From NCBI GenBank assembly GCA_043819795.1, contig JBDREN010000095.1:2047-66046 (forward strand): a stretch of DNA of 64,000 nucleotides. Direction: 5' to 3'. This document shows positions 33,443 through 33,710 of this stretch, in pieces (position 1 is the first letter of the stretch; every line of letters starts with the position of its first letter). The notes beneath the pieces were generated by a model. That model ran no database searches. It had not been told where the DNA came from and saw only the letters and a list, made by a program, of their open reading frames with translations. This DNA is from Elusimicrobiota bacterium. GTDB taxonomy: Bacteria; Elusimicrobiota; Elusimicrobia; UBA1565. A program made the translations under genes and the position numbers.

Positions 33443-33471
33443 TTGCTAAATTTTCTTTCACCTGATATATT
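33443..33471 (+). promoter_or_regulatory. sigma-70-like promoter TTGCTA-N17-TATATT
   Basis: -35 at 33443-33448 and -10 at 33466-33471, counted by hand. Lies in an AT-rich tract about 120 nt upstream of the poly-Lys sORF. Confidence 0.55.
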
Positions 33472-33589
33472 TATGTTGCTACTCATCATCACGCGAAAGA
33501 ATACGCGGACGTTGAGCAGAGAAAGCGGTGGAACAAGTCGGAGCTAGCTCCAACGCACCGCAACGAGACAGACAAGAGAGGGTTACTGA

Positions 33590-33652
33590 ATGGCCAAGAA
33601 AAAGGCGAAGAAAAAGACAAAGAAGAAGGCCACCAAGAAAAAGAAGAAGTAA
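33590..33652 (+). CDS. 20-codon poly-lysine micro-ORF MAKKKAKKKTKKKATKKKKK
   Basis: GAGAGGG SD (33576-33582) 7 nt before ATG 33590. In-frame TGA at 33587-33589 immediately upstream, TAA at 33650-33652. 14 of 20 codons are Lys (11 AAG, 3 AAA). Bracketed by a promoter and an intrinsic terminator. Confidence 0.5.
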   Translation: MAKKKAKKKTKKKATKKKKK

Positions 33653-33675
33653 CGTCCTTCAGTAACTGTAGTCTA

Positions 33676-33710
33676 GGAGAGCCCCCGCATCCGGGGGCTC
33701 TCCCGTTTTT
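33676..33710 (+). terminator. rho-independent terminator
   Basis: 12-bp perfect stem GGAGAGCCCCCG / CGGGGGCTCTCC with loop CATC, followed by CG and then TTTTT (33706-33710). The stem starts 23 nt after the sORF stop. Confidence 0.8.

Follow-up and report, generated by a model that had tools for sequence, protein, structure and literature searches.

The stretch of DNA analysed here (the window: 64,000 nucleotides of an Elusimicrobiota bacterium, GenBank assembly GCA_043819795.1, contig JBDREN010000095.1) contains a small stand-alone unit in which a predicted promoter and leader, a micro-open reading frame (ORF) for the 20-residue peptide MAKKKAKKKTKKKATKKKKK and an intrinsic terminator follow one another. 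As near-identical short lysine-repeat ORFs, likewise missed by gene callers, recur in unrelated bacteria and archaea, the unit probably makes a real polycationic microprotein. The reading that we favour, and to which we give an even chance, is that it is a real micro-gene whose product is a translated, low-specificity polyanion-binding polycation of a recurrent oligo-lysine class. Members of this class have the form M-A-KKK-A-KKK-T-KKK-(x)x-KKK... with (small residue)-KKK repeats, and no description of such genes was found in the literature (open-access subset, searched for lysine-rich short ORFs, lysine leader peptides and the motif). The same N-terminus occurs in stand-alone short ORFs (sORFs) from several phyla and from both prokaryotic domains; in addition, the ORFs evolve in a frame-preserving manner, their codon choice limits runs of A, and Lys is used exclusively over Arg.

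Metagenome contigs were searched with a degenerate DNA pattern for MAKKKAKKKTKKK, in which 27 positions were fixed, 9 admitted only purines (R) and 3 were free (N), so that chance matches are negligible. The pattern matched 26 contigs, the GC content of which ranged from 0.26 to 0.68. In 25 of these the motif opens a stand-alone ORF of 17-81 residues consisting almost entirely of (A/T/V/S/G)KKK repeats, the remaining match being a 101-residue Lys-rich protein. The first 13-18 residues of the window peptide are common to the metagenome sORFs (in L102, a Phycisphaerae locus encoding MAKKKAKKKTKKKATKKKPAKKK..., all 18 of 18 N-terminal residues are identical); past the third KKK the relatives typically show two small residues (VT, AT or GS) followed by KKK, and their ORFs end in KKKK or KKRR. 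Hosts were assigned from the names of neighbouring proteins. A large syntenic group belongs to the Phycisphaerae (Sedimentisphaerales/Phycisphaerales; Planctomycetota), with L088 placed in the Phycisphaerales, three loci (L095, L100 and L106) were assigned to Pacearchaeota and one (L094) to Aenigmarchaeota, and the other loci were left unplaced.

In nearly all loci the ATG is preceded, at a distance of 5-9 nt, by a strong Shine-Dalgarno (SD) sequence (AAGGAGGT, GGAGGTG or AGGAG). Intrinsic terminators stand 3' of the bacterial ORFs, again in nearly all loci, and T-rich stretches 3' of the archaeal ones. The SD sequences and terminators were not imposed by the search pattern and therefore point to real genes. 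In L103 a group II intron (53-224, minus strand; RF02001, 149 bits) lies directly after the sORF terminator, a typical homing site, which lends indirect support to the hairpin being a real terminator.

The Phycisphaerae group (NadD 56-92% and LysA 68-93% identical) was used for pairwise alignments. Within the ORF 32 of the 40 gaps are multiples of three, compared to 5 of 47 in the 5' flank and 21 of 70 in the 3' flank, and many of the ORF gaps measure 3, 6, 9, 15 or 27 nt and are thus not simply slippage of a 12-nt repeat. Repeat number is variable, with ORF lengths of 30 to 81 residues within one clade of this NadD identity range. Codon choice is also biased: AAG is enriched relative to flanking genes in hosts of low and mid GC content (p down to 4e-8); the high-GC hosts show, if anything, a small and non-significant excess of AAA over the flanking genes. 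Runs of A do not exceed 9 nt in any locus and 5 nt in the window. The AAG enrichment and the short A-runs together form the pattern expected from selection against slippery poly(A) in translation. Consecutive Lys codons and the cationic nascent chain are known to cause stalling or sliding of ribosomes (PMC9207662), and the oligo-lysine ORFs share both features with poly-lysine/poly(A) stalling tracts; they differ in their short A-runs, which argue for faithful translation and not for programmed sliding. In the window ORF 79% of the Lys codons are AAG (88% in the host), so that its codon usage fits the host, and the unit resembles the other loci at the DNA level only within the ORF, for which reasons recent horizontal transfer of the unit was rejected.

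The window peptide (about 2.3 kDa, net charge about +14) is 70% lysine, and the count of 14 Lys codons among 20 given in the preliminary description of this DNA is correct (11 AAG and 3 AAA); Arg is absent. Among all six frames of the window it is the only ORF of 10-45 residues with at least 40% Lys. At the amino-acid usage of the window (K 4.5%, R 9.1%) at least 14 Lys in 19 residues has a probability of about 1e-15, and the probability that all 14 basic residues are Lys, given K/(K+R)=0.33, is about 2e-7. No stand-alone Lys-rich equivalent was present in about 0.93 Mb of unrelated bacterial loci (distant BirA loci of 32-45% identity among the matches listed from a contig search by BirA alignment), the lone Lys-rich match being the C-terminal tail of a 392-residue protein. 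Sequence searches of NCBIfam (E up to 10; the window peptide and relatives of 74 and 81 residues), Pfam (the window peptide) and PDB (phmmer, E up to 10; the 20-residue and a 40-residue peptide) gave no matches, although the filters for compositional bias and low complexity penalise Lys-repeat queries and weaken these negatives. A protein database search with a 47-residue relative scored nothing, probably because of such bias filters. In an exact look-up, none of 10 related peptides (30-81 residues) was found in a collection of 15 billion proteins; oligo-lysine sORFs are effectively unannotated, and the expectation that gene callers miss them was borne out. Rfam contained no relevant family at the window locus or at 20 related loci, and a linkage to tRNA-Lys was looked for and not found.

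A polycation is favoured because the variable repeat number, the use of Lys and not Arg, and the small residue at every fourth position resemble H1/Hc2-type proteins. Hc2 binds DNA. Like Hc2 and other Lys/Ala-repeat nucleoid proteins, the oligo-lysine ORFs consist of short Lys-rich repeats with small residues, the copy number of which varies between close relatives. Hc2 (hctB) reaches 165-237 residues through variable Lys-rich pentamers (PMC2848022), whereas the window peptide is some ten times smaller, repeats an xKKK tetramer and is encoded by a stand-alone unit with a long leader, and its binding to DNA is presumed. Hc2 is moreover a protein of Chlamydiae, whereas the oligo-lysine units occur in Elusimicrobiota, Phycisphaerae and DPANN archaea. 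As we picture it, the unit would be transcribed independently and translated into an oligo-lysine peptide that would bind polyanions (nucleoid DNA, RNA or ribosomes, polyphosphate) electrostatically and with low specificity, comparable to the Lys/Ala-rich tails of H1-like proteins or to a protein substitute for polyamines, and would occupy no fixed structural slot. The long leader and a helix joining the SD-AUG spacer to the sequence after the stop codon would probably set peptide output.

The preliminary description had proposed a polycationic microprotein associated with ribosomes or nucleic acids. A translated polycation is indeed the best reading (recurrent N-terminus and SD, frame-keeping indels, codons that limit A-runs), but the link to the bS22/bL37 type that accompanied the proposal was not borne out (no family match, 17-81 residues, no Arg), and the class fits among tiny polycationic proteins but belongs to no named family. 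The other readings offered there, a translation-sensing sORF or a dual-function RNA, may still hold: the folds of the window unit show no antiterminator and its downstream gene is not lysine-related, but in Phycisphaerae lysA or dapB is a neighbour and untranslated parts of the transcript are conserved too. With distinctly less confidence, we suggest tentatively that oligo-lysine proteins of 17-81 residues with (small residue)-KKK repeats may form a widespread, unrecognised microprotein class of Bacteria and Archaea, encoded by dedicated small transcripts with regulated leaders, which would serve as cellular polycations (the protein equivalent of polyamines or protamines, acting on DNA, RNA or polyphosphate) and the synthesis of which would be coupled to lysine supply. 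Such a coupling would explain the position of the units beside lysA or dapB in Phycisphaerae.

Direct reading of the window placed the promoter, the palindrome of the leader, the GAGAGGG sequence, the in-frame TGA, the ORF and the terminator exactly where the preliminary description had located them (Table 1), and the promoter and terminator were recovered independently by a consensus scan (2 promoter-like sites per 2 kb observed, 0.4 expected). The scan also assigned the next gene a promoter-like site of its own, in agreement with the claim of a stand-alone unit. The unit is AT-richer than its surroundings, as had been stated: GC content is 0.44-0.52 over 33300-33800 compared to about 0.65-0.73 in the surrounding DNA, and 67% in the source genome. 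For the leader, the earlier length of about 110 nt assumes a start near 33478, which is a prediction from the position of the -10 element. The predicted 235-nt transcript folds better than shuffled sequences (z -4.5), and the Lys tract stays single-stranded. In the minimum-free-energy fold the two arms of a perfect inverted repeat are paired and thereby close the ORF into a loop; this duplex reaches p=0.05 against shuffles (weak evidence) and is not general across lineages, and a conserved ORF-closing helix was therefore not retained, the pairing being suggestive only. Upstream of the promoter a perfect palindrome, CCGGAAAATTATTTTCCGG, occurs once in the window (0.01 chance matches expected) and is centred about 60 nt before the predicted start of transcription; from its sequence it looks like a candidate operator for a dimeric regulator.

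Table 1. Coordinates of the oligo-lysine unit and associated elements in the window.
Feature	Position	Strand	Details
Perfect 9+1+9 palindrome CCGGAAAATTATTTTCCGG	33408..33426	.	between birA and the sORF promoter, in the divergent region
Sigma-70-like promoter TTGCTA-N17-TATATT	33443..33471	+	sequence reading and consensus scan, 9/12 matches; TTGCTA 33443-33448, 17-nt spacer, TATATT 33466-33471; TG 33463-33464 (extended -10)
Predicted 5' leader, ~112 nt	33478..33589	+	transcription start inferred from -10 position
Hairpin-forming palindrome GGAGCTAGCTCC	33540..33551		inside the predicted leader
SD-like GAGAGGG	33576..33582	+	GAGG core ends 8 nt 5' of ATG
5' arm GTTACTGAA of perfect 9-bp inverted repeat	33582..33590	+	spans SD-AUG spacer and A of AUG
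Micro-ORF for MAKKKAKKKTKKKATKKKKK	33590..33652	+	ATG 33590, TAA 33650-33652, in-frame TGA 33587-33589
3' arm TTCAGTAAC of perfect 9-bp inverted repeat	33658..33666	+	begins 5 nt past the stop codon
Intrinsic terminator	33676..33710	+	12-bp stem (10 GC pairs), 4-nt loop, CG, TTTTT; stem 33676-33703, beginning 23 nt past the stop codon; T5 33706-33710

Of the other explanations, a lysine-status sensor survives best, although we regard it as unlikely. The run of Lys codons would act as a ribosome-dependent leader, in cis (by terminator attenuation) or in trans (through a released small RNA or peptide), such that scarcity of charged tRNA-Lys would stall the ribosome, alter the fate of the RNA and change the expression of lysine genes. 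Leaders of the his/phe/thr type have a run of codons for the same amino acid in a short ORF followed by a terminator, and the window unit resembles hisL, pheL and thrL in that 14 of its 20 codons specify one amino acid and a strong intrinsic terminator follows closely. To our knowledge, no lysine leader of this type has been described. The genomic position in Phycisphaerae also speaks for a sensor: in nine loci (L087, L089, L099, L102, L104 and L107-L110) the oligo-lysine unit is fixed between nadD, which is divergent, and lysA (e.g., L104, 6615-6758 and the next ~400 nt). In the Sedimentisphaerales-like loci it is located directly upstream of lysA and co-directional with it (TIGR01048, 455 bits), and in the Phycisphaerales locus L088 it is divergent from dapB at a distance of about 160 nt. 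Two distinct neighbours from the diaminopimelate pathway among about 9 lineages correspond to a chance of 1e-3 to 2e-3 (a rough post hoc estimate). A search of these loci turned up no lysine riboswitch, and the use of Lys without Arg would fit selection on the codons themselves.

In the window, however, lysine-related genes are absent from the surrounding DNA to a distance of about 10 kb, and no co-directional lysine gene depends on read-through. The next gene, at a distance of 606 nt, has a promoter-like site of its own, and both the minimum-free-energy and the centroid folds show the 12-bp terminator hairpin as independent, with no competing antiterminator. In Phycisphaerae, a conserved, promoter-like TTGCAA-N17-TATACT stands between a strong terminator and lysA, which makes classical attenuation unlikely there, and where the neighbour is the divergent dapB attenuation in cis is impossible. 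Across the family, leaders would require neither 30-81 codons nor a consensus SD nor conserved Ala/Thr positions, whereas relatives of the window unit have up to 81 codons and consensus SDs, and in archaeal and other lineages the neighbours are unrelated. A lysine-sensing leader is accordingly unlikely in the window and hinted at in Phycisphaerae, in which a coupling of lysine supply to a lysine-only product is plausible. In several of these loci (L099, L104, L107 etc.) there are three copies of the motif (A)TTTAGTCA: one precedes the promoter, and the two that are transcribed lie immediately 5' of the SD and immediately 3' of the stop codon. Each of these two can base-pair with the SD-AUG spacer GUGACAAAAU. 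The possible pairing suggests a translational switch, and the RNA of the Phycisphaerae units probably has a regulatory structure.

Slightly less probable still is a dedicated ribosomal microprotein, an analogue of bS22, eL41, bL37 or Thx that would fill a pocket of the rRNA. The precedent is bS22, which was unannotated in Borrelia, consists to 61% of a Lys/Arg mix, is essential, was predicted by its discoverers in further bacteria and has a 24-25-residue analogue in the archaeal-eukaryotic eL41 (PMC10618245). Like the oligo-lysine ORFs, these proteins are very short, extremely basic, often missed by annotation and encoded by independent small genes (PMC10618245), and a strong SD together with a terminator would fit a highly expressed gene. 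They differ in their fixed length of about 24-33 residues, their mixture of Lys and Arg and their conserved non-basic residues, whereas the window peptide is pure (x)KKK and has no Arg and no Met, His or hydrophobic anchor residue. A range of 17-81 residues within related lineages does not fit a fixed pocket. No sequence similarity to bS22, eL41 or bL37 was found, and the libraries searched (NCBIfam, Pfam, PDB) include the known tiny ribosomal proteins, although low-complexity filters weaken this negative. The gene is also absent from the syntenic sites of the sampled Elusimicrobiota.

An RNA as the functional product, with translation incidental or regulatory, appears improbable. Here, the unstructured (AAR)n purine tract, looped between structured ends and followed by a terminator, would serve as a small RNA that is bound by or sequesters an ARN-binding protein such as Hfq, or that pairs with CU-rich targets. 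The A-R-N repeat is the motif bound by the distal face of Hfq, and (AAG/AAA)n fits it; the single-stranded tract in a transcript that folds better than its shuffles agrees with this, as do the repeated (A)TTTAGTCA copies around the Phycisphaerae ORFs. Furthermore, when L093 is compared with L111, identity is 95% in the leader, 100% in the ORF and about 90% across 200 nt of the 3' untranslated region, so that the untranslated parts roughly equal the ORF in conservation; outside, identity is 46-76%. The conserved block corresponds to the entire unit (about 350 nt), and the long GC-rich 3' untranslated region of these two loci may have a function of its own. Hfq-type ARN small RNAs are non-coding transcripts, and in the window ARN repeats and a U-tail are present, yet with coding signatures: an ATG preceded in nearly every lineage by a correctly spaced consensus SD, frame-keeping indels (single-codon ones included) that are found only inside the ORF, and a strict four-codon periodicity with small residues at fixed positions, which is a pattern at the level of the protein. 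Rfam gave no family match. A type I toxin-antitoxin system with a hydrophobic peptide antisense to the Lys tract was dismissed since the Leu/Phe (CTT/TTT) frame has no start codon (a TGA just upstream, no ATG, GTG or TTG before the tract and no such ORF listed).

A viral origin was likewise rejected, as the strict motif was not found in IMG/VR and matches to a looser MAKKKAKKK motif there were mostly the ends of ordinary, longer proteins. Some IMG/VR contigs classed as viral carry stand-alone sORFs, which are 22-25 residues long, MAKKKAKKKKKTKKKRKTKKKRK-like and preceded by a strong AAGGAGGT SD in L118, L174, L185 and L192, and have the sequence MAKKKAKKKNKKKKKKNKKKKK in L152 and L172.

Several observations weigh against a translated, low-specificity polycation. 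The search pattern fixed the first 13 residues and low-complexity sequences can converge, so that recurrence of the N-terminus does not demonstrate common descent. That lysA and dapB are the neighbours in Phycisphaerae is more in keeping with a role tied to lysine than with a generic polycation, and conservation of the untranslated parts in L093 and L111 means that the RNA may carry part or all of the function. Transcription and translation in the Elusimicrobiota host are what we infer from the anatomy of the unit, and the binding function is argued from charge and analogy. Finally, the sampled Elusimicrobiota (46-58% identity in neighbouring proteins) have no sORF at either syntenic flank. 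As these are the closest relatives sampled, the gene of the window may be lineage-specific.

The synteny scan near birA that the preliminary description had proposed was accordingly negative for relatives this distant. The best matches of the window BirA and of the downstream membrane protein (50-58% identity) are proteins from metagenome-assembled genomes labelled Elusimicrobia or Elusimicrobiota, e.g., ‘Elusimicrobia bacterium GWA2_69_24’; in an exact look-up the window BirA and carboxyltransferase were not on record. On the birA side, none of the Elusimicrobiota loci L081-L086 has the sORF, and in five of them (L081, L083-L086) the DNA upstream of birA is occupied by different genes. On the downstream flank, the operon that encodes an unknown protein and a membrane protein is retained in L113-L116 (in L116 together with the PGK-GAPDH neighbourhood), again without a Lys-rich sORF. 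A class II aminoacyl-tRNA synthetase beside the operon in L113, at first a possible LysRS, was judged to be an AsnRS from sequence motifs alone.

In the window itself, an operon of birA, carboxyltransferase, enoyl-CoA hydratase and biotin carboxylase lies in divergent orientation to the unit, and the gene downstream of it, of unknown function, forms an operon with the membrane protein. Between the sORF terminator and this gene lies a stretch of 548 nt (33711-34258) in which no ORF family match, no Rfam match and no significant fold was found. It holds GC-rich inverted repeats (33982-33991/34030-34039 and 34157-34166/34182-34191) and could, by its sequence, be a decayed gene or an unknown element. 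Upstream of birA, sequence reading revealed a 12-codon ORF on the minus strand (ATGAGCTTC...GCGTGA, 33281-33317), the stop codon of which overlaps the annotated GTG start of birA (GTGA); it may be a chance ORF or an upstream ORF that couples translation.

The oligo-lysine sORFs extend unexpectedly across phyla and domains. If the units are translated, an entire class of microproteins with very high charge goes unrecorded by standard annotation in poorly studied lineages, and these peptides would evade gene callers and tryptic proteomics alike. Such peptides could affect nucleoid compaction, the charge balance of ribosomes and RNA, and the handling of polyphosphate. The family also provides a natural test case for the faithful translation of long Lys runs (through codon mixing and short A-runs) and could reveal whether the production of a lysine-only product is tied to the supply of lysine. 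The comparative set makes this question testable, the nadD-sORF-lysA layout of the Phycisphaerae being especially useful because this class has cultured members.

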